DNA from: Sneathiellales bacterium
Lineage (GTDB): Bacteria > Pseudomonadota > Alphaproteobacteria > JANQFL01
Reading direction: 5' to 3'
NCBI GenBank assembly: GCA_028277845.1
Contig: JANQFL010000040.1
Location: 1-64,000, forward strand
Length of the DNA: 64,000 nucleotides
In this document: in pieces, positions 9,957 through 28,342 of the stretch
How the letters are laid out: every line of letters starts with the position of its first letter
Position numbering within the stretch: the stretch's first letter is position 1
Notes under the pieces: generated by a model
Databases searched by the model: none
The model's input: the letters and a program-made list of their open reading frames with translations, nothing else
Told to the model about the DNA's origin: nothing
Position numbers and translations under genes: made by a program

Positions 9957-10008
9957 AAGCGGACCGGTCGAAGGTATTTGGATGGACGATGCGTAACGGA
10001 GACGTGCG

Positions 10009-11244: not shown

Positions 11245-12160
11245 TCCGAACACATTCGTCGATATCTGCGAGGTCGGTCCTCGTGACGGCCTGCAAAGCG
11301 AGAAACGAATCTGGAGCGCCGGCGAGCGCGCCGAATTGATCGACCGGCTGGCCGCCACCGGTCTCGCACATATCGAGGCGGTCAGCTTCGTCAATCCCAA
11401 GCGGGTGCCGCAGATGGCCGATGCCGAAGCCGTGCTGCAAAAGGTCACGTGCCGCGACACGGCGACCCTGGCCGGCTTGGCCCTCAATCTGCGCGGCGTC
11501 GAACGGGCCGTGGACGCCGGCGTCGACGAAGTGCGCTATGTCGTCGTCGCTTCCGAGACCTTCAACCGGAAAAACCAGGGTGCCAGTATCGACGAGACGC
11601 TCGGTGCCTTCGAGGCCGTCGCCGCCCGGGTCGGCGACGCCGGTCTGAAACTGGCGGCGGTCATCGGCGCCTCGTTCGGCTGCCCCTTCGAAGGGGAGGT
11701 GCCGACGGAGCAGGTCGTTTCCATCGCCCGCCGCCTCGTGGCCGCCGGTGCCGGCGAAATCTACCTGGCCGACTCCATCGGCTGCGCCGTGCCCAATCAG
11801 GTCGCCGACCGCATCACCGCGGTCCGGGTGGCGATCGGGGCGGACGTTCCACTCGGCTGTCATTTCCACAACACCCGCAACACCGGCATCGCCAATGCGG
11901 CCGCGGCCGTCATGGCGGGCGTGCGCAAGCTGGATTCGTCGGTTGGCGGCATCGGCGGCTGCCCGTTCGCGCCGCGGGCCACCGGCAACATCTCGACCGA
12001 AGACGTCGGCTATCTGCTGCGCAACATGGGTTATGAGACCGGAATTGACCTCGATGCCTTGATCGCCGTTGCTGGCTGGACCGAAGGTTATTTCGACGCA
12101 CCGCTCCCGGGCCAGGTCATGAAGGCCGGCCTGTTCCCCGAGATCGCCGCCGCGCAATAG
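11228..12160 (+). CDS. Hydroxymethylglutaryl-CoA lyase-like (HMGL-like TIM barrel) protein
   Basis: VGPRDGLQSE...HFHNTRNTGIANAAAAV motifs of the HMGL-like family. Start ATG 11228 overlaps the CoA-transferase end. Confidence 0.7.
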   Translation: MTASSDPNTFVDICEVGPRDGLQSEKRIWSAGERAELIDRLAATGLAHIEAVSFVNPKRVPQMADAEAVLQKVTCRDTATLAGLALNLRGVERAVDAGVDEVRYVVVASETFNRKNQGASIDETLGAFEAVAARVGDAGLKLAAVIGASFGCPFEGEVPTEQVVSIARRLVAAGAGEIYLADSIGCAVPNQVADRITAVRVAIGADVPLGCHFHNTRNTGIANAAAAVMAGVRKLDSSVGGIGGCPFAPRATGNISTEDVGYLLRNMGYETGIDLDALIAVAGWTEGYFDAPLPGQVMKAGLFPEIAAAQ

Positions 12161-12400
12161 ACGTTCGCCGTTATCCTGGACGCACCGTGAACGGGATACC
12201 GTTCGCGGTGCCGCTCACAGTTTGGCCTGCGCCCGGTTCCGGTTCCATTCGCTGAACAGGACGTGGCACCGGACGTTCCGTCGCTTGCACGACAGGCGCC
12301 GCACGGCCGCTCTGCAGTTCGTCGAACTGCCGTTTGCTGTCGGCCAGCAAGTCGTCGAAGGGTGAGAAACGGCCGGATGCCATGACACGGTCTCCTGTAT

Positions 12401-13096
12401 TCAGTTGCCCTGGCTCCACCAGCGTTGGAAGCTCTTGTCGGATTCCGACAGGGCACTCACCTTGAGGGTATCGAGATAGTCCAGTACCTCCTGGCCCGGC
12501 ACCACGTCGGCGTATTTGGCGTCCATGTCGAACAGGTTGGCCTCGTGCGGGCCTTGCGCCCGGTCGCCGACGCCGTCCCGCACGACGATGGTGTTGTAGC
12601 CGTATTGCAGCGAATCGACCGCGGACGCGCGAACGCAGCCGCTGGTGGTGCAGCCGGTGATCACCACCGTATCGACACCCTGGGTCTTCAGATAGGTGTC
12701 CAGGTTAGTGCCGAAAAACGAACTCGCGTACTTTTTCGAAACGATGTAGTCGACGCTGCGCGGCGGGATCCGTTCATCGATCAAACACATATCCGATCCG
12801 CGGACCAATACGGCCAGCGACGGCACTTTTTTGATGAACACCCCGGCGTCGCGGAAATCCGGTTCGTATTCGATCGTGGTGAAGGCGACCGGCAATGCGT
12901 GATCATGAAACGCGTCCAGCAATTGCCGTGTGACCGCCAGTTCGGCGCTGAAATCGCCGCCCAGCGGCGACGACGGATCGGTGAATCCCTGAATGAAATC
13001 AACGATGAGCAGGGCCGGCCGCTCGCCGTATCCGGAGCGTTCGGCAAAGCCCTTGCTTTGATAACTCGCCAACGTGTCTTTTTGCCAATCGTTCAT
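12401..13096 (-). CDS. Isochorismatase-family cysteine hydrolase (N-carbamoylsarcosine amidase / biuret hydrolase-like)
   Basis: 231 aa. LLIVDFIQGF...VITGCTTSGCVRASAVD (catalytic Cys in GCxxxxCV context). Strong RBS GGGAGGA upstream. Confidence 0.75.
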   Translation of the reverse strand: MNDWQKDTLASYQSKGFAERSGYGERPALLIVDFIQGFTDPSSPLGGDFSAELAVTRQLLDAFHDHALPVAFTTIEYEPDFRDAGVFIKKVPSLAVLVRGSDMCLIDERIPPRSVDYIVSKKYASSFFGTNLDTYLKTQGVDTVVITGCTTSGCVRASAVDSLQYGYNTIVVRDGVGDRAQGPHEANLFDMDAKYADVVPGQEVLDYLDTLKVSALSESDKSFQRWWSQGN

Positions 13097-13285
13097 GGCG
13101 TGTCCTCCCGTGACCGGTGCATCTGATGGCGAACCTGACAGTAAGTATAGGCCGTGGGACGGATTCGTAAAATGCCGCGTGCCCCGTTGCCATGATCCCG
13201 ACTCGCGTGCAGACTAATGTGCAAAGCAACGACAACGCCGGAACAAGGCCAATCCCGGCGCCAAGAAAACAGGGAGGGTTCAGTC

Positions 13286-14344
13286 ATGAGCAGCGGTTCC
13301 CGTTATGGCCGTGCGCCCTACGGATCGGGCCAGGCACGCAATGTCACCGGCCCCCGGTACCAGCCCCGGCCATTGCTGTCGCCGTCACCGGCCGCCGCAT
13401 CGGTCGCGTCCCGCTCTCGCAGCACGGCCGGCGGCAAGAAGGAAATCCTGTGCGCCTTCGGCATCGACGTCGATGCCGTCGCCGGCTGGCTCGGATCTTA
13501 TGGCGGCGAGGATTCGCCCTGTGATATTTCCCGTGGCCTGTTCGCCGGCGAGGTCGGCACGCCGCGCCTGGTCGATCTGTTCGATCGGTTTCAGATTCCG
13601 ACCACCTGGTTCATCCCAGGCCACTCCATCGAAACCTTCCCGGAGCAAACCAGGATGGTGGTCGATGCCGGCCACGAGATCGGCATGCACGGCTATTCCC
13701 ACGAAAACCCCATCGCCATGACGCCCGAACAGGAAGAGGCGGTGCTGGACAAGTGCATCGACCTGATCGAGCGGGTTTCCGGCCGCAGCCCGACCGGTTA
13801 CGTGGCGCCGTGGTGGGAATTCAGCCCGGTGACCAACGAGCTTTTGCTCAGCAAGGGCATCAAGTACGACCACAGCCTGATGAACGACGACTTCCATCCG
13901 TTCTATGTCCGGGTCGGCGACAGCTGGACGCCGATCGATTACTCCAAACATCCGGACGAATGGATGAAACCGCTGGTGCGCGGCGTGGAAACCGACCTGA
14001 TCGACATTCCCGGCAGTTGGTATCTCGACGACCTGCCGCCGATGATGTTTATCAAGAGCGCGCCCAATTCCTTCGGCTTCGTCAATCCCCACGACATCGA
14101 GGAACTGTGGCGCGACCAGTTCGACTGGGTTTACCGGGAATACGACTACGCCGTCTTCACCATGACCATCCACCCCGACGTATCGGGCCGGCCGCAGGTC
14201 TTGTTGATGCTGGAACGGGTGTTCGAACATATCTCGAGCCACGCCGGCGTGCGCTTCTGCACCTTCGATGAAATCGCCGACGATTTCGCCCGCCGGCATC
14301 CGCGTGACAAGACGGCGCAGGGCGGCGCCGAGGCGGCGGACTAG
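13286..14344 (+). CDS. Polysaccharide deacetylase (NodB-homology) family hydrolase with a roughly 55-aa disordered N-terminal extension
   Basis: NodB motifs CAFGIDVDA and [12 protein letters not shown]-terminus [47 protein letters not shown] is low complexity. RBS AGGGAGG. Confidence 0.65.
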
Positions 14345-14348
14345 GCCC

Positions 14349-14669
14349 ATGTGCGGCTTGTGCGGCGTGCTCGGCGGACGCGGGCACTGGACCGAAACTT
14401 CGACCAACCCGGACGCCTTCGCCAGCCGCACCGCCGCTCATACCACCGGGCGTGAACGCCAGGCGCGCACCGTTCTGGTCAATCGGGTGCTGAAACACTA
14501 CGGCCTCGGTCTCAAGGACTGGTCGGGCAGTTCCTATGTCCTGCGCAGCAGCACCGGCAAGACCGCGCTGGTCGACAATCTGACCCAGATGTGGGCCCAG
14601 GCCGAGTCGCTGACCGGTCGCGACTGCGACCCGCTGGACGACGCGTTGCTCGCGGCGTTGCGGCGCTAG
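14349..14669 (+). CDS. Hypothetical small protein (106 aa) starting MCGLCGV...
   Basis: ATG 5 nt after the deacetylase stop. Ends 12 nt before the COG0523 gene. GC3-rich codon usage. No recognisable family. Confidence 0.35.
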   Translation: MCGLCGVLGGRGHWTETSTNPDAFASRTAAHTTGRERQARTVLVNRVLKHYGLGLKDWSGSSYVLRSSTGKTALVDNLTQMWAQAESLTGRDCDPLDDALLAALRR

Positions 14670-14681
14670 AAAGGCCCCGCC

Positions 14682-15728
14682 GTGGATTACGCCGGTCTCA
14701 TTCCTGTCAATGTCGTGACAGGCTTTCTCGGCAGCGGCAAGACGACGTTGTTGCGCCGGCTTCTGGCGGCGCCGTCGCTCAGCGACACCGCCGTCCTGGT
14801 CAACGAGTTCGGCGAGGTCGGTCTCGATCATCATCTGCTGCAGAACGTCACCGAAAGCGCCCTGTTGCTGGACAATGGCTGCGTCTGCTGCGCCATCCGC
14901 GGCGATTTGCAGGATTCGTTGCGGCAGCTGTTTTCCCAGCGCGACCGCGGCGAGGTGCCGCCGTTCCGGCGCGTGGTCATCGAAACCTCGGGCCTGGCCG
15001 ATCCGGTGCCGATCGCCTACACCGTGCTGTCCGAGCCGGTGCTGCAGCATCACTTTCGCCTGGGCGCCGTCGTTACCACGGTCGACGCCGTCAACGGCGC
15101 CGGGCAACTGGCGCGCTTCGAGGAATCGGTCAAACAGGTCGCCGTGGCCGACCGCATCGTCGTGACCAAGGCCGACCTCGCCGATGCGGAAACCGTCGCC
15201 GCGTTACGCCGGGCCATCCGGCGCCTCAACGGTGCCGCGCCGATCATCGATAGCGGCGACGGCGGCTGGTCGCCCGAGCAACTGATCGTTGACGATATCT
15301 ACGATGCCGACGGCAAGGCGCGGGAGGTGGGCCACTGGCTCGCTGCGCAGGGCGAGGGGGCGGGTGCTGAGCATGGCCATACCGACGGTGTCTCGTCCTT
15401 CGCCGTCGTCTTCGATCGACCGCTGGACTGGACCGCTTTCGGCGTCTGGATGACCATGCTGCTCAACCGGCACGGCGATAAGGTGTTGCGAATCAAGGGT
15501 TTGCTCAATGTCTCCGGGATCGCCGAACCGGTGCTGATCAACGGCGTGCAGCACATCGTGCATCCGCCCGTGCACATGGACGGCTGGCCCGACGGCGACA
15601 GGCGCAGCCGCATCGTCTTCATTGTCCGCGGGCTCGAGCAGGCACGCATCGAGGCGTCGCTGAATGTCTTCAACGACATGGTCAATTCGTCTGCGGAAGA
15701 GACGAGCGGGCTAATCCGAGCCGGATGA
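14682..15728 (+). CDS. COG0523 (CobW/HypB/UreG-type) G3E-family GTPase, putative metallochaperone
   Basis: P-loop GFLGSGKTTLL, diagnostic GCVCCA (CxCC) motif, C-terminal CobW-C-like domain. Confidence 0.8.
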   Translation: MDYAGLIPVNVVTGFLGSGKTTLLRRLLAAPSLSDTAVLVNEFGEVGLDHHLLQNVTESALLLDNGCVCCAIRGDLQDSLRQLFSQRDRGEVPPFRRVVIETSGLADPVPIAYTVLSEPVLQHHFRLGAVVTTVDAVNGAGQLARFEESVKQVAVADRIVVTKADLADAETVAALRRAIRRLNGAAPIIDSGDGGWSPEQLIVDDIYDADGKAREVGHWLAAQGEGAGAEHGHTDGVSSFAVVFDRPLDWTAFGVWMTMLLNRHGDKVLRIKGLLNVSGIAEPVLINGVQHIVHPPVHMDGWPDGDRRSRIVFIVRGLEQARIEASLNVFNDMVNSSAEETSGLIRAG

Positions 15729-16241
15729 GCCGGGGCTGACGCGGGGCGGCGGGCGGCGGGTCTGCCAGCCGTCGCGGAAGGCGCGCACCACGTGGTGCAG
15801 CAGGTAAAACAGCACCGCCAGGATGATCAGCAGCACGATGGCGAGCAGCTTTTCGCCGAACCCCGAGCCGATCATCGCCTCTTGGCCCATCAGGTGCAGG
15901 GCCAGCATGGCGACGGCCTGCAGCGTCGCGCCGGCGCAGAAAATAACGGCGATCAGGATCGATATCTGCAATGTATCGAACACCAGGGCGCCGACGTCCA
16001 GGTCCTTGACATGGCGGATCAGGTTGCGCCGGAAGGATTGCCAGTGGGACACCGCGTAGGCCAGCACCCCGACCACCGAGGCGAACCAGAAAATCACATT
16101 GGTGAAGTGGATATTGGGGATGCTGCCGACCAGGAATTTCTCGAACGGGGCGTAAAAATACAGGAAAATCAAAAAGATAATGATTGCGATCAGGATGATC
16201 CAGAATCGCGGCCGCCGCCCGGTGGTGGTTTCTTCTGCCAT
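15711..16241 (-). CDS. Small integral membrane protein (about 4 TM), uncharacterised family; paralog of 29807..30289
   Basis: 176 aa. LIFLYFYAPFE...IFW...HW...ATLQAV..L motif block shared with the second copy. Divergent from hyuA-1. Confidence 0.55.
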   Translation of the reverse strand: MAEETTTGRRPRFWIILIAIIIFLIFLYFYAPFEKFLVGSIPNIHFTNVIFWFASVVGVLAYAVSHWQSFRRNLIRHVKDLDVGALVFDTLQISILIAVIFCAGATLQAVAMLALHLMGQEAMIGSGFGEKLLAIVLLIILAVLFYLLHHVVRAFRDGWQTRRPPPRVSPGSSGSD

Positions 16242-16501: not shown

Positions 16502-18571
16502 ATGTCAGGCCGTCTCGGCATTGACGTCGGAGGCACGTTTACGGACCTCCTGTTGTTCGACGGCAGCACGGGCGCCATGCACCTGCTGAAGACGCCGTCC
16601 ACGTCCGACGACCAGTCCATCGGCATTCACACCGGCATTCGCGACATGGTACGCCGGTCCGGCATCGCGCCCGGACAGATCGATGCGGTGCTGCACGGCA
16701 CCACCGTGCCGACCAACATCGTGCTCGAGGAAAAGGGCGCTAAGGTCGGCCTGCTGGTGACGGAAAACTTCGAGCAGGTGCTGCATCTCGCCCGCTCGCA
16801 GACGCCGGGGCCGCTGGCCGGCTGGATCATCATGGAAAAGCCGGATCCGCTGGCCGATCTGGAATTCACCCGCGGCGTGCGCGAGCGCATGTCGGCCCAC
16901 GGCGACGTCATCACCCCGCTCGACGAGACCAGCGTCACGGCCGCGATCCGCGACCTGCTCGATGCCGGCGTCGAATCGATCACCGTGTCGCTGCTGCATT
17001 CCTACGCCAATCCCGATCACGAGCGCCGCATCAAGGCGATGATCGTCGACATGGATGCCGACATCCCGGTGTCGCTGTCGTCCGACCTGCTGCCCGAGTT
17101 CCGCGAATACGAGCGCACGTTGGTCACCGTGATGAACGCCTATGTGCGCCCCAGCATGCGCCGCTATCTGACCGGCTTCGAGGACAAGCTGAAATCCCTC
17201 GAGGTGACGCCGCACGTCAACATCGTGCGCTCCGACGGCGGGCTGATGAGCGTGCCCAGGGCGTCCGATTCGCCGGTCCACACCATGCTGTCGGGGCCGG
17301 CCGGCGGCGTGTCGGGCGCGGCCTATCTGGCCGGCCTGGCCGGTTATCCCGACGCGCTCGGTTTCGACATGGGCGGCACGTCCACCGACGTCTCGCTGAT
17401 CCAGGACGGCAAACCGACCATTTCGCGCCAGACATCGCTCGGCTACTACCCGATCAAGGTGCCCTCGGTCGAAGTGCACAGCGTCGGCGCCGGCGGCGGC
17501 TCCGTCGCCCACGTGCCGATGACCGGCGCGCTCAGGGTCGGGCCGGAAAGCGCCGGTGCCATGCCGGGCCCGGCCTGCTACGGCCATGGCGGCACGGCGC
17601 CCACGGTGACCGACGCCAACGTGGTGCTCGGCCGCCTGCCGCCGCAGCTTTTGGGCGGCGATATGGTCCTCGACACGGCGGCGGCGGAGGAGGTGATCAC
17701 CACACTCGGCCGCAAGATCGGCCTCGACATGCACGCCGCCGCGGAAGGCATTCTCGACATCGTCAACGAAAACATGTTCGGCGCCCTGCGCCTGGTGTCG
17801 GTGCAGAAGGGATTGGACCCGCGCGACTTCGCCCTCGTCGCCTTCGGCGGCGCCGGGCCGCTGCACGCCAACGCCATGGCGATGCTGGCCGGCTGCTACC
17901 CGGTCATCGTGCCGCCCACGCCCGGCGTGCTGTCGGCGCTGGGCTTCCTCTATTCCGACATCAAGAACGAGTTTGCCCGCACCTTCGCCCGCACCCTCGA
18001 CGAAGCCACGCCCGAGCAGGTCGGTGGCATCCTCGAGGATTTGCGGCGCGACGCGCGCGCCTGGTTGGCCGAGGAAGGCCTGGCCGAGGACCGTCAGACG
18101 CTCGGCTTCCAGGCCGACGTGCGCTATTTCCGCCAGGGCTACGAGCTGTCGCTCGACATCGACCCGGCGGCCATGCGCAACGGCGGCATGGCGGATCTGG
18201 CCGCCCGCTTCGGCGCCGCCCACGAACAGCTTTACGGCTTCAAGCTCGACCAGCCCGTGGAACTGGTCAATCTGCGTGCGGTCGGCAGCGGCCGGGTCGA
18301 CAAGCAGGCGGTGCCGCGCTTCGAGCCGGAGGGCGCCGACGCCGCGACGGCCAAGGCCGGCCAGCACCAGGTCTATTTCAACGGCGCCTTCGTCAATACG
18401 GCGGTGTACGACCGGGCCAAGCTGCGGGCCGGCAACCGTCTCGTCGGCCCCGCCATCGTCACACAGACCGACACCACCACGGTCATCCATCCCGGCCATG
18501 TCGGCGAGGTCGACGCCTATCTGAATATCCTCATCCATCGCGAGGGCGAAGCCCTGGCGGAGCGGCGCTGA
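16502..18571 (+). CDS. hyuA: Hydantoinase/oxoprolinase family A subunit (HyuA / N-methylhydantoinase A-like)
   Basis: LGIDVGGTFTDLLLF start and full-length hydantoinase_A domain architecture. 689 aa. RBS GGGGAGGAAG. Confidence 0.85.
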   Translation: MSGRLGIDVGGTFTDLLLFDGSTGAMHLLKTPSTSDDQSIGIHTGIRDMVRRSGIAPGQIDAVLHGTTVPTNIVLEEKGAKVGLLVTENFEQVLHLARSQTPGPLAGWIIMEKPDPLADLEFTRGVRERMSAHGDVITPLDETSVTAAIRDLLDAGVESITVSLLHSYANPDHERRIKAMIVDMDADIPVSLSSDLLPEFREYERTLVTVMNAYVRPSMRRYLTGFEDKLKSLEVTPHVNIVRSDGGLMSVPRASDSPVHTMLSGPAGGVSGAAYLAGLAGYPDALGFDMGGTSTDVSLIQDGKPTISRQTSLGYYPIKVPSVEVHSVGAGGGSVAHVPMTGALRVGPESAGAMPGPACYGHGGTAPTVTDANVVLGRLPPQLLGGDMVLDTAAAEEVITTLGRKIGLDMHAAAEGILDIVNENMFGALRLVSVQKGLDPRDFALVAFGGAGPLHANAMAMLAGCYPVIVPPTPGVLSALGFLYSDIKNEFARTFARTLDEATPEQVGGILEDLRRDARAWLAEEGLAEDRQTLGFQADVRYFRQGYELSLDIDPAAMRNGGMADLAARFGAAHEQLYGFKLDQPVELVNLRAVGSGRVDKQAVPRFEPEGADAATAKAGQHQVYFNGAFVNTAVYDRAKLRAGNRLVGPAIVTQTDTTTVIHPGHVGEVDAYLNILIHREGEALAERR

Positions 18572-18573: not shown

Positions 18574-20868
18574 ATGTCGGAGACCACGACCAGAAAACCG
18601 CTGTCGCTCGACGACCTGCTGGCCGCCAATAAGGACCAGTTCGATCAGCTGTTCTCCCGGCAGATGACCCAGAAACCGCCGCCGGTAGTGCCGGTCAGGG
18701 AAGCGGTGCCCGAGCCCGCCGCCGTGACCGAGCCGTCCGAACCTGCGCCGGCGGAACCGGATGAAGCCGATCACGGCGTCGGCAACGTCAACGCCCACCT
18801 CAACCGGCTCTTCAGCATCGACTGGTCGTCCGAAGTTCTCGAACGCGCCATCGCCGACGACCGCGTGACCGTGCGCTGCCGGCTGACCGTCAGGGACGAG
18901 ACCATTGAAGTAGAAGGCTCGGCGCCCAATCGCGGCGATGCCGACGCGGCCCTGCAACGCGCGGTCGACGATGCGCTGCTGCGCGGCGCCGCGCGTGTGC
19001 TCGGCGAGGAACCGCCCGCCCGGCCCAAGAAGCCCTCGGAGCGCTGGAAGGAACGCGACGCGCCACCGCCGCCGGTGCGCCGTGTCGTCGACGAGCAAGA
19101 GCGGGCCGGCCTCGACATCGTCACCCTGGATCTGATCGAGAACGCGCTGCGCAACGCCCGCCACGAAATGGATGCGGTCTTGTTCCGGTCCGCCATGTCG
19201 CCGGTGATCCGCGAGCAGCACGACGAATTCCCCATGATCACCGATGCCGAGGGGCGTATGATCGTCGGCCAGTTCGGCTCGTACATCTCGGAAATGCTGC
19301 GCCAGCGGGACTTCGACCTGCGGCCGGGCGACGTCATTTTGCAGAGCGATCCCTACAAGTGCGGCGGCGCCATCAGCCACATCAACGACTGGATGGTGCT
19401 GGTGCCGGTGTTTCACCGCGGCGACCTGGTCGGTTTTACCTCCATGTTCGGCCACATGATGGACGTGGGCGGGCCGGTGCCCGGCAGCATGCCGACGGCG
19501 GCGACGTCGATCTTCGGCGAGGGCATGCGCATCCCGCCGATCAAGATCTACGAGGCCGGCCAGCTCAACCAGGGCGCTCTCGACCTGCTCATGAACAACA
19601 CCCGCACGCCGGAGATGAACTACTCCGATCTGATGGCGATCATCGCCGGCTGCAAGGCCGGCGAGAAGCGGGTGATCGAAATCTGCGAACGTTTCGGCGC
19701 GGCTTTGTACCGCCAGGCCTGCGCGGCCCTGCTCGAGCGCACCAACACCGCCATGCGCCAGCTCATCGTCCAGAACCTGCCCGAGGAACCGCAATCCTTC
19801 GAGGATTTCGTCGACGACGACGGCTGCGGCAACGGCCCGTTCGTCATGAAGCTGACCGTGTGGCGCGAAGGCGATCATGCCTATTTCGACTGGACCGGTA
19901 CCTCGGCCCAGGCGCCGGGGCCGGTCAACTTCTACCTGCACGAAGGCATGTTCAAGATGTTCATCGGCGTCTACATGATCATGGTCTTCGATCCCCAGAT
20001 CCTGTTCAACGACGGCTTCTACGACCTGATCCACGTCAACATGCCGAAGGGTTCGTTGATCCATCCGGAGTTTCCCGCCGCACTGGGCTGCCGCACCCAT
20101 GCGCTGGCCCGGCAATTCGACGTACTGGGCGGCGCGCTCGGCCGTCACACGCCGGAAACGGCGACCGCCGCCGGCTACGGCTCCAGCCCCTATTTCCTGT
20201 TTTCCGGCACCGACGAGGCCGGCCGGCCGTTTCAGTTGATGGAAATCCTCTACGGCGGCATTCCCGGCCGGCCCATCGGCGACGGCATGGACGGCCATTC
20301 CTGGTGGCCGCTGTTCGAGAACATTCCGACCGAGTACCTGGAAAGCTTCTATCCCATGGTGATCGAAAGCTATGCCAGCCTGGCCGATACCGGCGGCGCC
20401 GGCAAACACCGCGGCGGCAATGGGATCGAGAAGGTCTACCGGCTGCTGGAGGACGGTATGGTGTCGATCCACGACGACCGCCACCGCACCCAGCCATGGG
20501 GCATTCTCGGCGGCCAGCCCGGCGCCTGTTCGCGGAAATGGCTGCAACGCCGGGACGGCGAGCGCGAAGAGCTGCCTTCGAAGATCGACGGTATCCGGGT
20601 GCGCAAGGGTGATCGCATCGTTTTCCGCACCGCCGGCGGCGGCGGATGGGGCGACCCGTTGGAACGGGATGCCGGCCGCGTACGCAACGATGTCGCCCGG
20701 CGGCTGATGTCGATCGAGAAAGCGCGCGACGACTACGGCGTCGTGCTGATGGCCGATGGCCTGCAACTCGATGTTCGCGCCACGCGCGATTTACGCGCTA
20801 ATATGAAACACAGCAGAAGACCGCTGGAGTTGTTCGAGTACGGTGACCGGCCGGCTACGGCCACGTGA
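18574..20868 (+). CDS. hyuB: Hydantoinase/oxoprolinase family B subunit (HyuB-like) with a roughly 170-aa N-terminal extension
   Basis: Hydantoinase_B core begins near residue 175 (DIVTLDLIENALRNARHEMDAVLF...). ATG 2 nt after the hyuA stop. Extension has GC3-rich coding signal, Pro/Glu-rich. Confidence 0.8.
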   Translation: MSETTTRKPLSLDDLLAANKDQFDQLFSRQMTQKPPPVVPVREAVPEPAAVTEPSEPAPAEPDEADHGVGNVNAHLNRLFSIDWSSEVLERAIADDRVTVRCRLTVRDETIEVEGSAPNRGDADAALQRAVDDALLRGAARVLGEEPPARPKKPSERWKERDAPPPPVRRVVDEQERAGLDIVTLDLIENALRNARHEMDAVLFRSAMSPVIREQHDEFPMITDAEGRMIVGQFGSYISEMLRQRDFDLRPGDVILQSDPYKCGGAISHINDWMVLVPVFHRGDLVGFTSMFGHMMDVGGPVPGSMPTAATSIFGEGMRIPPIKIYEAGQLNQGALDLLMNNTRTPEMNYSDLMAIIAGCKAGEKRVIEICERFGAALYRQACAALLERTNTAMRQLIVQNLPEEPQSFEDFVDDDGCGNGPFVMKLTVWREGDHAYFDWTGTSAQAPGPVNFYLHEGMFKMFIGVYMIMVFDPQILFNDGFYDLIHVNMPKGSLIHPEFPAALGCRTHALARQFDVLGGALGRHTPETATAAGYGSSPYFLFSGTDEAGRPFQLMEILYGGIPGRPIGDGMDGHSWWPLFENIPTEYLESFYPMVIESYASLADTGGAGKHRGGNGIEKVYRLLEDGMVSIHDDRHRTQPWGILGGQPGACSRKWLQRRDGEREELPSKIDGIRVRKGDRIVFRTAGGGGWGDPLERDAGRVRNDVARRLMSIEKARDDYGVVLMADGLQLDVRATRDLRANMKHSRRPLELFEYGDRPATAT

Positions 20869-20945: not shown

Positions 20946-23762
20946 ATGTTGGAAATCTGGATCGGTGCGATATTCACGGCGATCGTCGTTATCGCCATTT
21001 TCTACATCATCTCAATCTGGGTGTACAAAAGGGCGCCCGCCAACATGGGATTTATCCGAACAGGTTTCCTCGGCACCAAGGTCTGTCTGGGCCGCGGCGC
21101 CATGGTGCTGCCCGTCTTCCACGAAGTCACCTGGATATCGCTTGAGACCATCAAGCTGATTGTCAGCCGCTCGCGCGAACAGGCCATCCTGACGTCCGAC
21201 AAGATCCGCATCGACGTGAACGCGGAGCTCTATTCCCACGTCGGCCGCACGGAAGACGACCTGCTCACCGCCAGCCGCAGCCTGGGTGAAAAGACGTTCG
21301 ACGCCGAGAACGTGCGCAAGCTGCTGGAAGCCAAGGTGGTCAGCGCGCTGCGCAGTTATGCCGCGACCAAGACGCTGAACGAACTGCACGAAAACCGCGA
21401 CGACTTCGCCCAGGTGGTCAAGGACAAGGTCATCGCCAGTTTCCAGGCCAACGGCCTGGTTCTGGAAGAAGTCACCATCGTGTCCCTCGAGCAGACCGGC
21501 AAGGAGTTCTTCAAGGCCGACAACGTGTTTGACGCCGAAGGTCTGAAGATCATCACCGAGATTACCTCCGACGCCCGCCGCAAGGTGCACGACACCGAGA
21601 AGCGCACCACCGTCGCCATCCGCCAGAAGGATCTGGATACGCAGCTCGAACTGCTGGAAATCGAACGCAAGGAAGCCTTCGCCCAGGCGTCGCAGGATAA
21701 GGACGTGGCCAACCAGCAGGCCCTGCAATTGGGCGAGAAGCAGATGTACATGCTCGATCAACGCAAGGCCGTTGAGGAGCGCGAACTGGCCAACGAGGTG
21801 GAACTGGAGCGCTTGCGCACGGAACGCGAGGTCGCCAAGACCGAGGAAAACAAAAAGCGCGAATCGTCCGACATCGAGCGGCAACTCGCCTTGGAGAAGG
21901 AGCAGCGCGACAAGGACATCGCCCTGATCGCCAAGGCCGAGGAAGAGGAACTGGCCAACATCCACCGTAATCTGGCGCTGGAGAAAGCCGAACGGGACCG
22001 CCACATCGAACTGATCGAAAAGGCCAAGCAGGAGGAACTGGCCGAAATCGCCCGCAACCTGGCCCGCGAGCAGGCCGAGAAGGACCGGGAAATCGAACTG
22101 ACCGAGAAGGAACGGGAACGGCAGAAGGCCGAAATCGCCCGCGCCACCGAAGTGTTGAAGGCCGAGGAAGCGGCCCGCGACGCCCGTCACGAAGCTTCGG
22201 AGGAAACCTCTCTGGCCATGCGTCAGCGTGCCCTGGACACCAAGCTGAAGGCGTTGGAGATCGACAAGAACGAAGCCTTCGCCGAGGTTCAGCAGGAAAA
22301 GGACGTGTCCGACGAGAAGGCGCGCATCCTCAGCGAACAGCAGCGCAACATCCTCGATCGCCGCTTGGAGGTCGAGCAGGAGGAAATCGCCAAGGAGCAG
22401 GCCGTCGAGCAGGCGCGCATCAAGAAGGACGCAGCGGTGATCGACGAGGCCAAGTCCCGCGAAGCGGCCGAAGTACGCCGTCAATTGGCGCGCGAGCAGG
22501 AGGAACGCGACCGCGAAATCGCCCTCGTGGCCAAGGCCGAGGAATTGGAGCGGGCCGAGATCCGCCGTCAATTGGCCCGCGAACAGGAAGAGCGGGACCG
22601 TGACATCGCCCTGGTCGCCAAGGAAGAGGAACTGCGCCAGGCCGAGGTGCGCCAGCAACTGACCATCGAATTGGAGGAAAAGGAGCGCGAAATCCGCATC
22701 ATCGCCAAGGAACAGGAGCGGGAAAAAGCGGACATCATGCGGTTCCTGTCCCGGGAGCTGGAGGAGCGCAACCGGGAAATCTCCCTGGTCAACAAGACCC
22801 GTGAACTGGAAGAGGTCGAAACCAAGCGGCTCAAGGTGACCGCCGACAAGGAAAAGGCCGAACACATGGCCGAGTCGGTGCGCAAGGTGGCCGATGCCGA
22901 GCGCGAGAAGGAAATCGAGCGCATCGCCGCCGAGAAGGCCGCCGAGGCCAAGCGTATCGAGGAAGAGGCCCAGGCCGCCATCGCCAGCATGCACATGGTC
23001 AGCCAGGCCGAGGCGCGCAAACAGTCGGCGGCCGAGGAATCCGACGCCACGCTGATCCGGGCCAAGGCCATGAGCGAGGCGCAGAAGATTTCCGCCGAGG
23101 GGATCGAGAAGGAAGCCGCCGCGCGCGGGCGGGCGGAAGCTGAGGTCGAGGCGCTCAGGGTCGAGAACACCCAGCGCATGCTGGAGGCCGAAGCCACCGG
23201 ACTGGAAGCCAAGGCCGACGCTCTCAAGAAGTACAACGAGGCGGCCACGTTCCTCGAGCTGTCGAAACTGCACATCGAAGCCGAACGCGACGTCCACATC
23301 GACCAGGCCAAGGCCATGGGCAACGCGTTGTCCGGTGCCCAGATCCGCATGTACGGCGGCGGCGACGGCACCGTCGACACCATCCGCGACATGTTCACCT
23401 CGGGCTTCTCGCTCGGCGAGGTGCTGGAAGGCGTGGCGCAATCCCTGCCGGAGGGCCTGCGCAGCCGTTTCGCCGCCAACGGTATCCGCGGCATCTTCGG
23501 CAAGCCCTATCGCAGCGGTCAGTTCAAGGAGATGACCGAGCAGTTGAGCCAATTGGTGCGCGACAATCTCGGCACCAGGAAGAAGCGCGAAGTGTCGTTC
23601 GCCAAGGCGCTCGCCTTGCTGGAAGACAAGTCCGGCGGCAACGAGGCCCAGACCCAGGCATTGAACCTGTTGAAGGACGCCAACGAGAACGGCGTCTTCG
23701 ACGAGGTGCCGTTCGAAACCGTCTGGTCGCTGCTGCAGGCCACCGCCAAGGCGGCCGACTGA
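20946..23762 (+). CDS. Flotillin-like SPFH/band-7 protein with a very long repeat-rich coiled-coil (938 aa)
   Basis: N-terminal TM helix plus SPFH domain, then at least 9 tandem 29-residue units of type AEIRRQLAREQEERDRDIALVAKEEELRQ. Flotillin-type C-terminus. Confidence 0.7.
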   Translation: MLEIWIGAIFTAIVVIAIFYIISIWVYKRAPANMGFIRTGFLGTKVCLGRGAMVLPVFHEVTWISLETIKLIVSRSREQAILTSDKIRIDVNAELYSHVGRTEDDLLTASRSLGEKTFDAENVRKLLEAKVVSALRSYAATKTLNELHENRDDFAQVVKDKVIASFQANGLVLEEVTIVSLEQTGKEFFKADNVFDAEGLKIITEITSDARRKVHDTEKRTTVAIRQKDLDTQLELLEIERKEAFAQASQDKDVANQQALQLGEKQMYMLDQRKAVEERELANEVELERLRTEREVAKTEENKKRESSDIERQLALEKEQRDKDIALIAKAEEEELANIHRNLALEKAERDRHIELIEKAKQEELAEIARNLAREQAEKDREIELTEKERERQKAEIARATEVLKAEEAARDARHEASEETSLAMRQRALDTKLKALEIDKNEAFAEVQQEKDVSDEKARILSEQQRNILDRRLEVEQEEIAKEQAVEQARIKKDAAVIDEAKSREAAEVRRQLAREQEERDREIALVAKAEELERAEIRRQLAREQEERDRDIALVAKEEELRQAEVRQQLTIELEEKEREIRIIAKEQEREKADIMRFLSRELEERNREISLVNKTRELEEVETKRLKVTADKEKAEHMAESVRKVADAEREKEIERIAAEKAAEAKRIEEEAQAAIASMHMVSQAEARKQSAAEESDATLIRAKAMSEAQKISAEGIEKEAAARGRAEAEVEALRVENTQRMLEAEATGLEAKADALKKYNEAATFLELSKLHIEAERDVHIDQAKAMGNALSGAQIRMYGGGDGTVDTIRDMFTSGFSLGEVLEGVAQSLPEGLRSRFAANGIRGIFGKPYRSGQFKEMTEQLSQLVRDNLGTRKKREVSFAKALALLEDKSGGNEAQTQALNLLKDANENGVFDEVPFETVWSLLQATAKAAD
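22467..22640 (+). repeat. Near-identical tandem 87-bp (29-codon) repeat pair inside the flotillin-like gene
   Basis: gccgaagtacgccgtcaattggcgcgcgagcaggaggaacgcgaccgcgaaatcgccctcgtggccaaggccgaggaattggagcgg is followed directly by a copy with few substitutions. Older diverged copies lie on both sides. Confidence 0.75.
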
Positions 23763-23800: not shown

Positions 23801-24907
23801 ATGGCCGACTACGACGTCGTTCTGGACCACGTCCATAAGACCTATCCGGGCGGCGTCCGCGCGGTGATCGATTTCAACGCCGAAATCGAACGCGGCGAAT
23901 TCGTCGCCATGCTGGGCCCCTCCGGTTGCGGCAAGACGACCACGTTGCGCATGATCGGTGGCCTTGAGGAAGTCACCGAGGGCAAGATCTACATTGCCGG
24001 CCAGGACGTCACCGATCTGCCGCCGTCGCAGCGCGATACCTCGATGATGTTTCAGAGCTTCGCTCTGTTTCCCCACCGCAACGTGTTCCAGAACGTCGAA
24101 TTCAGCCTCAAGATGAAAGGCATCGACAAGGACGAGCGGGCGCGCCAGGTCTGGGAAATGGTCGAAATGGTGGGCTTGAAGGAACTGGCCATGCGCCGGC
24201 CGCACGATCTCAGCGGCGGCCAGCAGCAGCGCGTCGCCCTGGCGCGGGCTTTGATCAGCCGGCCGACCCTGCTGTTGCTTGACGAACCGCTGGGCGCGTT
24301 GGACTACAGCCTGCGCCAGGCCATGATGATCGAACTCAAGCGCATTCAGCGCGAACTGGGCATCACCTTCATCATGGTCACCCACTCGCAGCAGGAAGCC
24401 ATGGCCATGGCCGACAAGGTGGTGGTGATGAGCGATGCCCTGGTGCAGCAGATCGGCCCGTCACGGGAGATCGCCGAATCGCCGCGCACCCGCTTCGTCG
24501 CCGATTTCATCGGCAACAACAACCTGTTCACCGGCACCATCAAATCGCAAAGCGGCTCGATCGTCTTCGTCGAGGCCAAGGACAGGCTCTACTACGTGCG
24601 CGTGCCCGATTACATCAAGCGCGTGCCGGTCGGCGGGGAGGTGGATTTCTCCGTCCGCGCCGATCTCATGCATACCGGCGAACACCGCAACATGGCCAAC
24701 AGCGTCAAGGGCAGTTACGTCACGACCGAATATCTCGGCACCCTGGAAACCGATGTGTTCGAGATCGCGCCCGGCCATTACGTGCATGTCGAGCAGCACC
24801 GCAAACTGTCCGACCGGGTCTACCAGATGGGCGAGACGGAAACCATCTGCTGGAGCGCCGAGGCCGGCATCCTGCTCGAAAAGGCCGGCGCCCACCTGAC
24901 GCAATAA
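23801..24907 (+). CDS. ABC transporter ATP-binding protein, PotA/spermidine-putrescine type (with C-terminal TOBE-like region)
   Basis: Walker A GPSGCGKTT, LSGGQQQRVALARAL, 368 aa. Convergent with its presumed permease genes. Confidence 0.8.
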   Translation: MADYDVVLDHVHKTYPGGVRAVIDFNAEIERGEFVAMLGPSGCGKTTTLRMIGGLEEVTEGKIYIAGQDVTDLPPSQRDTSMMFQSFALFPHRNVFQNVEFSLKMKGIDKDERARQVWEMVEMVGLKELAMRRPHDLSGGQQQRVALARALISRPTLLLLDEPLGALDYSLRQAMMIELKRIQRELGITFIMVTHSQQEAMAMADKVVVMSDALVQQIGPSREIAESPRTRFVADFIGNNNLFTGTIKSQSGSIVFVEAKDRLYYVRVPDYIKRVPVGGEVDFSVRADLMHTGEHRNMANSVKGSYVTTEYLGTLETDVFEIAPGHYVHVEQHRKLSDRVYQMGETETICWSAEAGILLEKAGAHLTQ

Positions 24908-24916
24908 TCCGCTCCG

Positions 24917-25744
24917 TCAGTGCGAGCGGCGGTACAGGATGGTGTAGATCGCCAGGAACAGCCCGATCATGAACAGCGAGAACAGGGTGGAGATGGTCCC
25001 CAACGCGAACAGGGTCGGCCGGATGCGCTGGGTCATCGAGGCGTTGATGTCGAGCGGCAAGGTGTTGAACTCGCCCGACAGCAGTGTCGTGCGGGCAAAC
25101 TCGTCGTAGGAGAGCGTGAAACCGAACAGGCCGGCGGCGACGATGCCCGGCGTGATCAAGGGCAGCGTCACTTCCTTGAACACCGTCCATTCGTCGGCGC
25201 CCATGTCGCGGGCCGCCTCCTCCAGACTGGCGTCGAACCGGTTGAACACCGCCATCATCACCAGGAAGCCGAACGGCAGAGCCCAGACCACATGCACGGC
25301 AAGCGCCGAGGTGTACCAGGACGGCGACAGGCCGAGCTGGCGCATCAGCGTCGCCAGGCCCAGGCTGAGCAGGACGCCCGGCACCATCAGGCCGGCCAGG
25401 ATGGTGTAGAACAAGGCGTTGGAAAAACGGAACTTGTGGCGGAACGCCATCGCCAGCATGGTCGAAAACAGCGCCGTGATGACCATGACGATGAGGGCCA
25501 GAACGATGGAGCGGCCCATGGCGCCCTGCAGGTCGCCGACCGTCGACGGCTCCAGCAGTTTGTTCCACCAGTACAAACTCCAACCGCGCATCGGAAAGCT
25601 CGTGCCGCCGCGCCGGCCCTGGAACGACAGGATGAACATGGCGATCATCGGGCCGTAGATGAACAACAGGAACAGCACGTAGTAGATGCTGAACCCGGTC
25701 TTCACCCGCAGCTTGCGCCATCGTTCCGGGGTCCATCGCGCCAT
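24917..25744 (-). CDS. ABC transporter permease (PotC-like)
   Basis: 275 aa, 6 TM, binding-protein-dependent transport EAA-loop region. Confidence 0.8.
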   Translation of the reverse strand: MARWTPERWRKLRVKTGFSIYYVLFLLFIYGPMIAMFILSFQGRRGGTSFPMRGWSLYWWNKLLEPSTVGDLQGAMGRSIVLALIVMVITALFSTMLAMAFRHKFRFSNALFYTILAGLMVPGVLLSLGLATLMRQLGLSPSWYTSALAVHVVWALPFGFLVMMAVFNRFDASLEEAARDMGADEWTVFKEVTLPLITPGIVAAGLFGFTLSYDEFARTTLLSGEFNTLPLDINASMTQRIRPTLFALGTISTLFSLFMIGLFLAIYTILYRRSH

Positions 25745-25745
25745 C

Positions 25746-26726
25746 TCACAGTTCCTTGCGGATATCGACGATACGCAAAATGACGATGATGCCGATCACC
25801 ATGGCCACCATCAGCATGAGCGCGTTGACCGCGGCAAACGGATAATTGGCGATGCCGTAATAGTTGAGGATGACGGTGCCCGTCGTGCTGGTCTTGCCGC
25901 CGTAGACGACGACCGCGGTGGCAAACTCGCCCATGATCATGACGAAGATGAAGATCATGCCGATGGCGACACCGGGCAACGACAGCGGACCGATGATCTC
26001 GCGAAAGATCTGGAACGGCGTCGCCCCCATATCGATGGCGGCTTCGATGATGGCCTTGTCGATCTTGGCCAGCGAGAAAAAGATCGGCCCGATGCACAAC
26101 ACCACGTAGATCTGCACCAGCGCCATGGTGTAGCCGAATTCCGAATAGAACAGGAAGCTGACCGGCTTGTCGACGATCCCCATGCCGACCAGGGCCTGAT
26201 TGATCAGGCCGCGGCGGCCCAGCATGGGCAGCCAGGCCACCGCCCGGATCAGGTAGCTGGTCCAGAACGGCACCATGCACAGAAGGAACAGCGCCAGTTG
26301 CCACTTGAAGGCCTGCACCTGCATGGCCAGGAAATAGGCGATGGGATAGCCGACGATCAGGCACAACAGCATGACGACGAGCGTGAAGTAGATCGTCGAA
26401 CCCAATGTGCGGATAAAGATGCTGGGCAGCAGAAAGCGATCCGAACCCGGCTCGAAGAAGCCTTCGGTGAAGAAGTATTCGAAGTAGGACTTGAACGACA
26501 GTTCGGGAATCATGCCGTGCGGCGTCGATTTCCAGAAACTGAAGACGATGATCGAGACCAGCGGGACGACCAGGAACACGATCAGCCACAAAGTCGCGGG
26601 GGCAATCAGCCAGCCGGGGGAAAACCCTTCCTGAGGCCGCACCACCTTCGCCCGCACGACCGACTCGTCCGGCGTGGGCTGGCTGCCGATCAATCCTGGA
26701 TGATGGGTGCCGGTGACTTCAGTCAT
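25746..26726 (-). CDS. ABC transporter permease (PotB-like)
   Basis: 326 aa, multi-TM. 1-nt gap to the downstream permease. Confidence 0.8.
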   Translation of the reverse strand: MTEVTGTHHPGLIGSQPTPDESVVRAKVVRPQEGFSPGWLIAPATLWLIVFLVVPLVSIIVFSFWKSTPHGMIPELSFKSYFEYFFTEGFFEPGSDRFLLPSIFIRTLGSTIYFTLVVMLLCLIVGYPIAYFLAMQVQAFKWQLALFLLCMVPFWTSYLIRAVAWLPMLGRRGLINQALVGMGIVDKPVSFLFYSEFGYTMALVQIYVVLCIGPIFFSLAKIDKAIIEAAIDMGATPFQIFREIIGPLSLPGVAIGMIFIFVMIMGEFATAVVVYGGKTSTTGTVILNYYGIANYPFAAVNALMLMVAMVIGIIVILRIVDIRKEL

Positions 26727-26858
26727 GAAACGACGGACCTGCCATGTCCTGCGGCATGCAATACATCAACAACCGGGGCATCAACAATCGGGCCGGTACG
26801 GCAAACATCGTACCGGCCCGTGTTGCGTACGCGGTCCCCGAACACGAGACCACGAAAA

Positions 26859-28133
26859 CTACGCGCTGAGGAACTCGGTCCAGCGCTTCACCAGATAGTC
26901 GTTTTCCTTCATGATCGAGTTCCACACGGCGATCTTCTTGAAGCGTTTCTCGTAGGAACCGCCGTCGCGGACCGTGCCTTTCTCGACCAACGGATTGCCG
27001 AACGGGTCGGGCAGTTCCTTGGCAGCCGGCTTGCCCTCGTACCAGTAGTCCCACTCGTCCTGCGGCAGGTGCTTCTTCACTGGCTCGAACGCCGACATGT
27101 AGTAGCCCTGGCGGGCGACGAAGGCACCGGCCCAGCCGTCGAGCCACCAGTTGAGGTACTCGTAAGCCTGGTCGAGCTTCTTGCCCGTGGCCTTGGCCGA
27201 GATGGCCTTGGCACCGTGCCAACCGCGCATGCCTTCCTTGGGCGACGCATAGATGCACCGGACGCCTTCGGCGTTGACGGCGGTGACGGCCGGCGACCAC
27301 ATGCTTTGCAGAATGACTTCGCCCGACACCATCAGGTTGACCGACTGGCCGAAGGTTTCCCAGAAGGCGCGGAAATGGCCTTCCTTTTTCTTCTTGATCA
27401 GGAAGTCGACCAGGAAGTCGATTTCCTCTCTCGTCATGTCGCCCTTGTCGCCGAACTTCTTCAGGCCGAGCGCTTCGACACCCATGGCGGCATCCATGGC
27501 GCCGATCTGCGGCACGTTCAACAATGCGACGGCGCCCTTGAAGTCGGGATGGAACAGTTCGGCCCAGCTTTCGATATCCCGGCCGGTGTCGTCGGGTGCA
27601 TAGCCCAGGCTATCGGCGTTGTGGATGGTCGGCAGCGCCGAGATATAGCGTGACGGACCCTTGATCCGCTTGCCGTCCTTATCGACCCACATCTGGCGCA
27701 CCGGCGCGTCGCCGTCGCCGATCTGAGAACCTTCCGTCAGCATGCCGGTCTTGGTCAAATTGGAAACCAGATCCCAGTTTTTGATGCGCTGGGTGTCGAT
27801 GGGCTGGAACACGCCGGCCGGTACCATGGCATCGAACATGTCGAAGTAGCATTCGGACACTTCGTACTGGTCGTTCTGGTTCAGGGTCTTGCCGAACAAG
27901 GCACCATATCCGAGCGCCTGGCCACGGATCGGGATGCCCGTATCCTTCGACGCCTGCGCCTGGATTTCGTTGATGATGCTCACGCCCAGACCGATGGTCC
28001 GGATCGGATCGGCGGCACGCACGATGTTTGGGAAGCCGACGATCGAACCGGCGGCGATCGCACCGGCTCCGCCTACGAATTGCCGGCGCGAGATGTCTTT
28101 AATGAGCGACTTGCTTTTCTTCTTCTTGGCCAT
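26859..28133 (-). CDS. ABC transporter periplasmic substrate-binding protein (family 1, PotD/PotF-like) with Tat signal
   Basis: N-terminus MAKKKKSKSLIKDISRRQFVGGAGAIAAG (twin-arginine motif). 424 aa. Confidence 0.75.
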   Translation of the reverse strand: MAKKKKSKSLIKDISRRQFVGGAGAIAAGSIVGFPNIVRAADPIRTIGLGVSIINEIQAQASKDTGIPIRGQALGYGALFGKTLNQNDQYEVSECYFDMFDAMVPAGVFQPIDTQRIKNWDLVSNLTKTGMLTEGSQIGDGDAPVRQMWVDKDGKRIKGPSRYISALPTIHNADSLGYAPDDTGRDIESWAELFHPDFKGAVALLNVPQIGAMDAAMGVEALGLKKFGDKGDMTREEIDFLVDFLIKKKKEGHFRAFWETFGQSVNLMVSGEVILQSMWSPAVTAVNAEGVRCIYASPKEGMRGWHGAKAISAKATGKKLDQAYEYLNWWLDGWAGAFVARQGYYMSAFEPVKKHLPQDEWDYWYEGKPAAKELPDPFGNPLVEKGTVRDGGSYEKRFKKIAVWNSIMKENDYLVKRWTEFLSA

Positions 28134-28342
28134 CTAGATCCTCCCAAGGTTATGAACCGGATTGTTTGTTGGCCGAGATGTGTCCTCCACGAACTTACGC
28201 ACCTAACTTCACCGCGAGCGCATGCTCGTATTCGGATGAATCAGGGCCGATCGATGATTCTGTCGTCCACTCAGTATGTGAATGATATAGTAGACTAATT
28301 CGTTAGGAAACTGCCGATAGAGTAGTCGATGGGGAGGTAACC

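Follow-up and report, generated by a model that had tools for sequence, protein, structure and literature searches.

Candidate docking tags on hydantoinase-type enzymes encoded beside a giant flotillin in a Sneathiellales bacterium

Two hydantoinase-type modules and their N-terminal extensions

The first 64,000 nucleotides of contig JANQFL010000040.1 (assembly GCA_028277845.1), from a Sneathiellales bacterium, encode two paralogous enzyme modules, each built around a HyuA and a HyuB subunit of the hydantoinase type. In this window (the whole 64,000-nucleotide stretch, with a G+C content of 60-70%), genes were picked by their GC content at third codon positions (GC3) and named using Pfam and NCBIfam. 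All four subunits pass the gathering scores of their Pfam families (Hydant_A_N, Hydantoinase_A, and Hydant_A_C, or Hydantoinase_B; E 1e-50 to 1e-150); the closest NCBIfam equivalogs, caprolactamase alpha and beta, are matched far below cutoff. In each pair, one subunit carries a long N-terminal extension: HyuB in module 1 and HyuA in module 2. An original prediction, made by reading the letters alone, had proposed that the two extensions share a short motif and represent a portable signal for localization or assembly; here, this proposal is followed up with profile searches, structure prediction, and a survey of related loci. The relevant features, with strands in parentheses, are:

16502-18571 (+), HyuA-1, the untagged partner of HyuB-1
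18574-20868 (+), HyuB-1, 764 residues: N-terminal extension, then the Hydantoinase_B core
18574-19113 (+), N-terminal extension of HyuB-1, residues 1-180, as delimited by Pfam, PDB boundaries, and homolog coverage
18607-18669 (+), putative docking helix of HyuB-1, residues 12-32; motif core LDDLLAANKDQFDQL at 18607-18651
18670-18783 (+), linker 1 of HyuB-1, Pro/Ala/Glu-rich, residues 33-70
18784-18999 (+), predicted Rad52-fold domain of HyuB-1, alpha-beta-beta-beta-alpha, residues 71-142
19000-19113 (+), linker 2 of HyuB-1, Pro/Arg/Glu-rich, residues 143-180
19114-20868 (+), catalytic core of HyuB-1; Pfam Hydantoinase_B, E 3.9e-150; PDB relatives 7hk5 and 6yra
33797-36250 (+), HyuA-2, 817 residues: N-terminal extension, then the Hydant_A_N core
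33797-34204 (+), N-terminal extension of HyuA-2, residues 1-136, helix plus linker
33809-33874 (+), helix of HyuA-2, residues 5-26; motif FDSQLDDMKNEFDRL at 33830-33874
33875-34204 (+), Pro/Ala/Arg-rich linker of HyuA-2
34205-36250 (+), catalytic core of HyuA-2; Pfam Hydant_A_N/Hydantoinase_A/Hydant_A_C from residue 138, PDB relatives from residues 136-139
36266-38179 (+), HyuB-2, the untagged partner of HyuA-2

Both extensions exist and are coding, adding 180 residues to HyuB-1 and 136 to HyuA-2, and the partner subunits begin at canonical starts, much as the original prediction had it. The Pfam match to Hydantoinase_B starts at residue 181 in HyuB-1 but at residue 19 in HyuB-2; that to Hydant_A_N starts at residue 138 in HyuA-2 but at residue 4 in HyuA-1. 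Likewise, the solved relatives (7hk5, 6yra, 5l9w, 5m45, and 5svb) align only from residue ~180 of HyuB-1 and ~137 of HyuA-2. The anticipated G/C bias of third positions is found in both extensions (GC3 of 0.83 in HyuB-1 and 0.82 in HyuA-2), as is the tight coupling to upstream genes: the ATG lies 2 nt (HyuB-1) and 6 nt (HyuA-2) past the preceding stop codon. Among the best 120 database homologs of each enzyme, on which conservation was judged, the HyuB-1 extension is kept in all 120 (proteins of 740-792 residues, 96-100% query coverage) and the helix motif and extension of HyuA-2 in 117; this conservation shows that the extensions are translated and maintained by selection. Mis-called start codons are ruled out by the more than 100 orthologs, the GC3 values, and the translational coupling. 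The motif is conserved in more than 100 orthologs of each enzyme, so the refutation foreseen with the original prediction, a motif missing from all orthologs of otherwise conserved enzymes, did not materialize. A word-indexed search with the isolated 179-residue extension returned zero matches, overlooking even the identical database protein (P0001); this is a false negative of the index, whose negatives are unreliable for queries rich in low-complexity sequence, and full-length and exhaustive profile searches gave hundreds of relatives.

A shared helix on a disordered tether

Structure prediction, one of the checks suggested at the outset, gives a helix and a disordered tether in both extensions and, in HyuB-1, a folded domain as well. 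In an AlphaFold2 (AF2) model of the HyuB-1 extension built on a 26-sequence alignment, the helix (residues 12-32) is predicted with a per-residue confidence (predicted local distance difference test, pLDDT) of 83-88 and the domain with 93-97, while linker 1 (26% Pro, pLDDT 48-58) lacks secondary structure and linker 2 scores 52-62. The HyuA-2 extension is modeled as a single helix (residues 5-26, pLDDT ~87) followed by ~110 residues without secondary structure. The long Pro/Ala-rich linkers noticed earlier hold up: they contain 22-26% Pro and 8-26% Ala, and across the HyuA-2 family the linker varies from 36 to 139 residues, with its composition, not its sequence, conserved.

Is the motif common to both enzymes real? 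The family consensus is SLDDLLxANKxQFDxLFxxQ for HyuB-1 and (T)xWFDxQLxxLKxEFDxLxG for HyuA-2. The best register of FDSQLDDMKNEFDRL against LDDLLAANKDQFDQL is ungapped, with hydrophobic residues at i, i+4, i+7, i+11, and i+14 forming a heptad seam; the motif itself thus stands, but the three-residue gap with which it was originally aligned is unnecessary. When the window is translated in all six frames, the pattern [FL]D..L...[KR]..F[DN].L matches exactly three times, against no match in 200 shuffles, and each match falls close to the N-terminal end of a genuine ORF: HyuB-1, HyuA-2, and a small protein, here called S:

12171-12383 (-), S, a 70-residue ORF (MASGRFSPFDDLLADSKRQFDELQ...GTANGIPFTVRPG): helix, Pro-rich linker, and short GTANGIPF element

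This ORF has an AGGAG Shine-Dalgarno sequence 8 nt upstream, lies directly 3' of an isochorismatase-like gene (12401-13096 (-)), and is matched by the S-family profile at E 2.9e-9. The S family has two forms. The short one (70-79 residues), with 74-79-residue orthologs at L002, L014, and L091, retains helix and linker and has a GTANG[IV]PF element as the counterpart of the GSADGVAFS loop of the long one; the latter spans 150-200 residues and also carries a Rad52-like domain (L001, L009, L011, L027, and others). The window ORF, which ends in GTANGIPFTVRPG, falls below the size limit of the ORF lists and had been overlooked by the earlier reader.

Profile-profile comparison (hhalign) of the N-terminal 40 residues aligns the HyuA-2 family with the HyuB-1 family at E 2.8e-4 (15 columns, ungapped), HyuA-2 with the free-standing S family at E 3e-8, and HyuB-1 with S at E 1.9e-10. 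Judged by these profiles, the three helices are one family, in which S links the two enzyme-borne forms. In the survey of 91 related loci (L-numbers denote individual loci; gene tables were read for 11, L001-L011), only HyuA, HyuB, and S carry the helix at E < 1e-3, and no Pfam or NCBIfam model covers either the helix or the S protein.

Two other identities for the helix were considered. A membrane-binding amphipathic helix is ruled out on grounds of charge: the mean net value is about -0.1 in the HyuB-1 type and -1.2 in the HyuA-2 type, neutral to acidic, and no basic residues flank the helix; a likeness to DUF465/HP1242 (1zhc) is not significant (E 0.17) and was dropped. In linker 1 (about columns 35-60 of the alignment), most HyuB-1 orthologs have a conserved linear motif, GLVxxSHRPxTxxDLxSASL, in place of which the window protein has a Pro-rich stretch. 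A helix inside the HyuB-2 core (VSAMQDMLDRNKRAMGEIL, about residues 215-240; FVxAMDEMLxRNKRAMGxIL at this position in many orthologs) weakly resembles the S-type helix (E 0.07-1, not significant), and HyuB-1, the tag carrier, has diverged at this site.

A Rad52-like domain on a metabolic enzyme

The "compact-looking segment" that the original prediction noticed in HyuB-1 is indeed a compact fold, but not an anonymous one. The best structural matches of the predicted domain are Rad52, Mgm101, and double-stranded RNA-binding domains (dsRBDs), and the model contains the beta-beta-beta-alpha core of the Rad52 fold. At the sequence level, the window extension has no match to PF04098 even at E <= 10; however, PF04098 matches 8 of the 26 orthologous extensions (best E 7.4e-7), a homolog (P0034) carries a precomputed PF04098 label, and, when a profile of the extensions serves as query, canonical PF04098 proteins are retrieved at about 1e-12. 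The domain belongs to the Rad52 superfamily by structure and, probably, by evolution.

An exhaustive search of 1.84 billion representative proteins with this profile yielded 753 matches at E <= 1e-3, which fall into three classes: (i) HyuB fusions of 733-779 residues; (ii) free-standing proteins of 140-200 residues that join the tag helix, via a Pro/Ala linker, to a Rad52-like domain with an inserted GSADGVAFS loop; and (iii) canonical Rad52-family proteins that lack the helix. One canonical match (P0342) has UvrD- and RuvC-like genes as neighbors, a phage-like context, whereas the tagged-enzyme loci are surrounded by genes for catabolic enzymes, transporters, and flotillin, with no recombination or phage context. 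The mean net charge of the Rad52-like domain is about 0, a value that is not informative as to ring formation or the binding of single-stranded DNA. A third HyuB paralog, absent from the window but present at L009 (21211-22287 (-)) and L011 (13142-15337 (+)), ends in a Pro/Ala-rich linker plus a C-terminal Rad52-like domain and is followed by genes for large and small transmembrane (TM) proteins.

The tag is therefore modular and portable, as had been surmised: the helix occurs on HyuB (module 1), on HyuA (module 2), or on the free-standing S, and the Rad52-like domain is N-terminal, C-terminal, or free-standing.

A flotillin-like protein and novel membrane proteins as neighbors

Several genes around the two tagged enzymes recur at related loci:

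15711-16241 (-), small 4-TM protein, type 1, 176 residues, divergent from hyuA-1; candidate membrane receptor
20946-23762 (+), flotillin-like protein, 938 residues; Pfam Band_7, weak NCBIfam FloT-like match; candidate scaffold
28343-29794, dihydropyrimidinase of module 1; TIGR02033 above cutoff
29807-30352 (-), small 4-TM protein, type 2, paralog of type 1; likely start (MTGWQWFW) at 30286
30375 to ~31812 (-), amidase; its GTG start overlaps the stop of the large TM gene (GTGA)
31808-32923 (-), large polytopic TM protein, 371 residues; heads the large TM-amidase-small TM operon, divergent from the isochorismatase-like gene and hyuA-2
33065-33790 (+), isochorismatase-like hydrolase, upstream of HyuA-2

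Module 1 reads small 4-TM (-), HyuA-1, HyuB-1, flotillin, ABC ATPase, two permeases, binding protein, and dihydropyrimidinase; module 2 consists of two divergent operons, large TM-amidase-small TM (-) and isochorismatase-like-HyuA-2-HyuB-2-enoyl-CoA hydratase (+). The small 4-TM proteins align as two paralogous types, one per module, and neither they nor the large TM protein match any Pfam or NCBIfam family. The flotillin-like protein combines an N-terminal TM helix, an SPFH/Band_7 domain, a repeat-containing coiled coil of ~600 residues, and a conserved C-terminal segment of ~150 residues; it is about twice the usual length (850-940 residues across loci), and its two termini are strongly conserved at related loci. 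Its coiled-coil region contains two arrays of 87-bp (29-residue) repeats, at 21916-22110 and 22476-22717.

Module 1 is set in a conserved catabolic island (9033-16241 and 23801-29794 of the window) that encodes an alpha/beta hydrolase, a CoA-transferase, an HMG-CoA-lyase-like enzyme, an isochorismatase-like amidase, a polysaccharide-deacetylase/PuuE-like enzyme, a ~108-residue protein without an assigned function, a CobW GTPase, an ABC importer, and the dihydropyrimidinase; because of these enzymes, the island suggests breakdown of a cyclic amide, a ureide, or a hydantoin. In module 2, the 798-residue amidase ORF of the mechanical ORF list is over-extended upstream.

How constant are these neighbors? 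In the nine distinct loci examined that encode an extended HyuB (the window, L001, L002 (= L003), L007, L008, L009, L011, L046, and L048), flotillin lies directly downstream of HyuB in every case. The order small TM (-) / HyuA-HyuB(extended)-flotillin-ABC ATPase recurs in all nine, which include members of different 50%-identity clusters, and a small TM gene precedes HyuA in all eight module-1 loci that cover this region. Flotillin is thus the most consistent neighbor of the N-terminally Rad52-tagged HyuB, and an operon-level association, as expected for a client of an SPFH protein, is found for HyuB-1 only.

For HyuA-2, a scan of a genome collection gave 80 loci, all from metagenome-assembled genomes of Alphaproteobacteria (Rhodospirillaceae, Rhizobiaceae, and Limibaculum), Acidiferrobacteraceae, other Gammaproteobacteria, and Burkholderiales. 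Of these, 76 have an intact N-terminus and entered a census with a hidden Markov model (HMM): the helix was found in 48, and 28 were profile-negative. Genes within 10 kb are distributed as follows (helix-bearing; profile-negative):

Any of small TM, large TM, or flotillin: 26/48; 0/28
Small TM: 24/48; 0/28
Large TM: 18/48; 0/28
Flotillin: 9/48; 0/28
Rad52-like: 8/48; 0/28
Isochorismatase-like: 30/48; 16/28

The usual layout of HyuA-2 loci is small TM (-) .. large TM (-) / isochorismatase-like-HyuA(helix)-HyuB. Four loci (L027, L028, L061, and L062) have small TM-isochorismatase-like-S operons. Among the neighbors of all three helix types, none is as consistent as the small 4-TM family. The isochorismatase-like amidase, tried as a universal partner of the helix since a helix-bearing gene frequently comes after it, is missing at many helix-bearing loci and present at 16 of the 28 profile-negative ones. 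The partners suggested with the original prediction, the small membrane paralogs and flotillin, do co-vary with the tags, but a helix-bearing sub-clade discussed below has no membrane-scaffold gene nearby.

What might the extensions dock to?

The extensions are very probably tags for assembly or localization rather than parts of the catalytic machinery. Each tag consists of an amphipathic helix of 15-20 residues with a heptad seam, followed by a disordered Pro/Ala-rich spacer of 36-140 residues; HyuB-1 and the long S proteins add the 72-residue Rad52-fold domain and a second spacer. We infer that the helix acts as a docking element, which would join HyuAB-1, HyuAB-2, and the S adaptor (encoded beside an isochorismatase-like amidase) to a common membrane-proximal assembly built of the small 4-TM paralogs (one per module), the large TM protein, and the giant flotillin, beside the ABC importer. 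The Rad52-like domain may serve as an oligomerizing hub: given its homology to ring-forming Rad52, Mgm101, and Sak, it could assemble into rings. Thanks to the long spacers, the catalytic (alpha-beta)2 cores would have freedom of movement and still be concentrated near the site of substrate entry and the next enzymes of the pathway. That a membrane/flotillin scaffold is the partner of the tags is a plausible but tentative proposal. A bolder variant, which is unlikely, pictures flotillin as an unusually tall SPFH cage that sits on the inner membrane from the cytoplasmic side and stands over the ABC importer and the TM proteins, with the tags loading the two hydantoinase-type enzymes and the amidase inside or onto the cage and the Rad52-like ring domain as a hub; if so, the locus would encode a metabolic compartment attached to the membrane and walled by flotillin, its hub derived from a recombinase.

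Several observations weigh against a membrane scaffold. The contrast between 26 of 48 and 0 of 28 loci has a Fisher p of 1.9e-7, a value that overstates independence because all helix-bearing HyuA proteins form one clade, and the contrast may stem from a single ancestral event. In a sub-clade of ~17 loci, the helix persists without any TM, flotillin, or isochorismatase gene less than 10 kb away, and no flotillin is in range for the Rad52-like S proteins of L027, L028, L061, and L062. In three other HyuA lineages, a different, leucine-zipper-like N-terminal helix occurs with no membrane genes nearby, an arrangement that fits self-association equally well. Finally, ring formation by a minimal Rad52 core of 72 residues is an assumption made by analogy. 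The leucine-zipper-like helices (L063, L080, and L084; e.g., YESRLAELERRLARLE) are shorter than the docking helix and sit on a linker of 30-50 residues.

If a membrane scaffold is set aside, what else could the tags do? The serious alternative, although a somewhat unlikely one, is soluble self-assembly: the helices would bundle as coiled coils, the Rad52-like domains would form rings, and the (alpha-beta)2 enzymes would be cross-linked into cytoplasmic clusters or condensates, leaving flotillin and the TM proteins to the transport and membrane functions of the catabolic island rather than to tag binding. The heptad-spaced seam, a duplicated helix in some HyuA orthologs, and the presence of three paralogous helices in a genome of the window type all fit this picture, as do the sub-clade and the leucine-zipper lineages that lack neighboring membrane genes; moreover, Rad52-family proteins are ring oligomers. 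Self-assembly leaves unexplained, however, why flotillin adjoins the extended HyuB at nine of nine loci and why each tagged module has its own small TM paralog, and the invariant polar positions of the helix (D, K, and FD) suggest recognition of a specific partner over a generic zipper. A regulatory latch, in which the tethered helix docks on the HyuA/HyuB core (perhaps replacing the internal HyuB helix or lying alongside it) and controls the assembly or activity of (alpha-beta)2, is quite unlikely. HyuB is the sole universal neighbor of the helix-bearing HyuA, and in N-methylhydantoinase 7hk5, a fusion of both parts, ~17 residues separate the end of A from the start of B, which would place the HyuB N-terminus at the A/B junction; but a tether of 90-140 residues far exceeds what an intramolecular contact needs, a free-standing 70-residue helix protein and a portable Rad52-like domain are ill suited to autoregulation, and the match of the S-type profile to the internal HyuB-core helix (E 0.07-1), although it points the same way, is not statistically significant.

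The Rad52-like domain invites yet another explanation, since its closest structural matches (Rad52, Mgm101, and dsRBDs) all bind nucleic acid and it is homologous to Rad52-family proteins from phage contexts: it could bind single-stranded DNA or RNA, anchoring the enzyme on the nucleoid or on RNA, or moonlight in regulation. Such tethering is very unlikely: the context is purely one of catabolism and transport, devoid of recombination genes, the domain is a minimal 72-residue core with a mean net charge of about 0, and the helix-only tag of HyuA-2 would be left unaccounted for. Least probable of all is a cargo signal for an encapsulin or a bacterial microcompartment (BMC), even though the form of the tags, a terminal amphipathic helix and a poorly conserved linker on differing subunits, is just that of microcompartment encapsulation peptides. 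Neither BMC-H/BMC-P shell families nor encapsulin/Linocin (HK97-fold) families are found among the ~50 GC3-supported ORFs of the window (Pfam), which contain no other shell family either, or among the called genes with Pfam labels of L001-L011; membership in either system, to which the original prediction had drawn an analogy, fails because neither set contains a shell gene.

Implications and comparison with known systems

Bacteria load enzymes into microcompartments and encapsulins via terminal helix-plus-linker tags. The Hyu tags look like an independent tag system, associated with a giant flotillin and two uncharacterized families of membrane proteins. If the partnership with the membrane scaffold is true, bacterial flotillins would gain defined soluble enzyme clients with recognizable address labels, and the long-debated scaffold role of bacterial SPFH proteins would become directly testable. 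The system also shows a Rad52-type recombinase fold serving as a module of a metabolic enzyme, and the short, portable helix with its linker could be used as an engineering tag.

As the original prediction supposed, such extensions appear to be new to hydantoinase-type enzymes: no family model covers the helix, and no description of these tags was found in the literature on hydantoinase/oxoprolinase extensions, Rad52-like fusions, pairings of hydantoinase with flotillin, flotillin neighborhoods, or SPFH cages and their cargo, and the papers on the last two subjects had no relation to the tags. The system thus looks undescribed but of a known kind, that of terminal docking tags for enzyme assembly. 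The catalytic cores themselves are homologous (E 1e-19 to 1e-134) to those of the characterized N-methylhydantoinase 7hk5, caprolactamase 6yra, acetophenone carboxylase 5l9w, and acetone carboxylases 5m45/5svb, but these solved enzymes have no extensions, and their chains begin 2-24 residues before the core. In comparison with Rad52, Mgm101, and Sak (PF04098), the HyuB-1 domain is reduced to a minimal core, lacks the elements that flank it in Rad52, is attached to a metabolic enzyme via disordered linkers or occurs in a 150-200-residue protein with a docking helix, and has no recombination genes around it.

BMC encapsulation peptides (e.g., those of PduP, PduD, and EutC) are non-catalytic, terminal amphipathic helices of ~18 residues on a flexible, poorly conserved linker. 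The Hyu tags share this design, a non-catalytic terminal amphipathic helix and a flexible linker carried by different subunits of a pathway, but the helix shows no sequence relationship, the linkers, at 36-140 residues, are far longer, there is an additional Rad52-fold domain, and the associated genes encode novel TM proteins as well as a flotillin. Encapsulin cargo-loading peptides and the disordered domains of Family-2 cargo place a short motif in a long, disordered Pro/Ala-rich terminus that is portable between cargo enzymes; the Hyu tags are likewise a short motif in a portable, disordered Pro/Ala-rich terminal region, yet the motif differs and the context is that of a putative membrane scaffold. 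On the side of the presumed partner, the flotillin resembles SPFH scaffolds (FloT/FloA-NfeD and the HflK/C-FtsH cages) in having an N-terminal anchor and a coiled coil and in sharing an operon with its presumed clients. Unlike these scaffolds, it is about twice the usual length, contains repeats, and lacks an NfeD-type partner (Pfam and NCBIfam scans of the window genes gave no NfeD family match); its presumed clients are soluble, ATP-dependent hydantoinase-type enzymes that bear dedicated tags.

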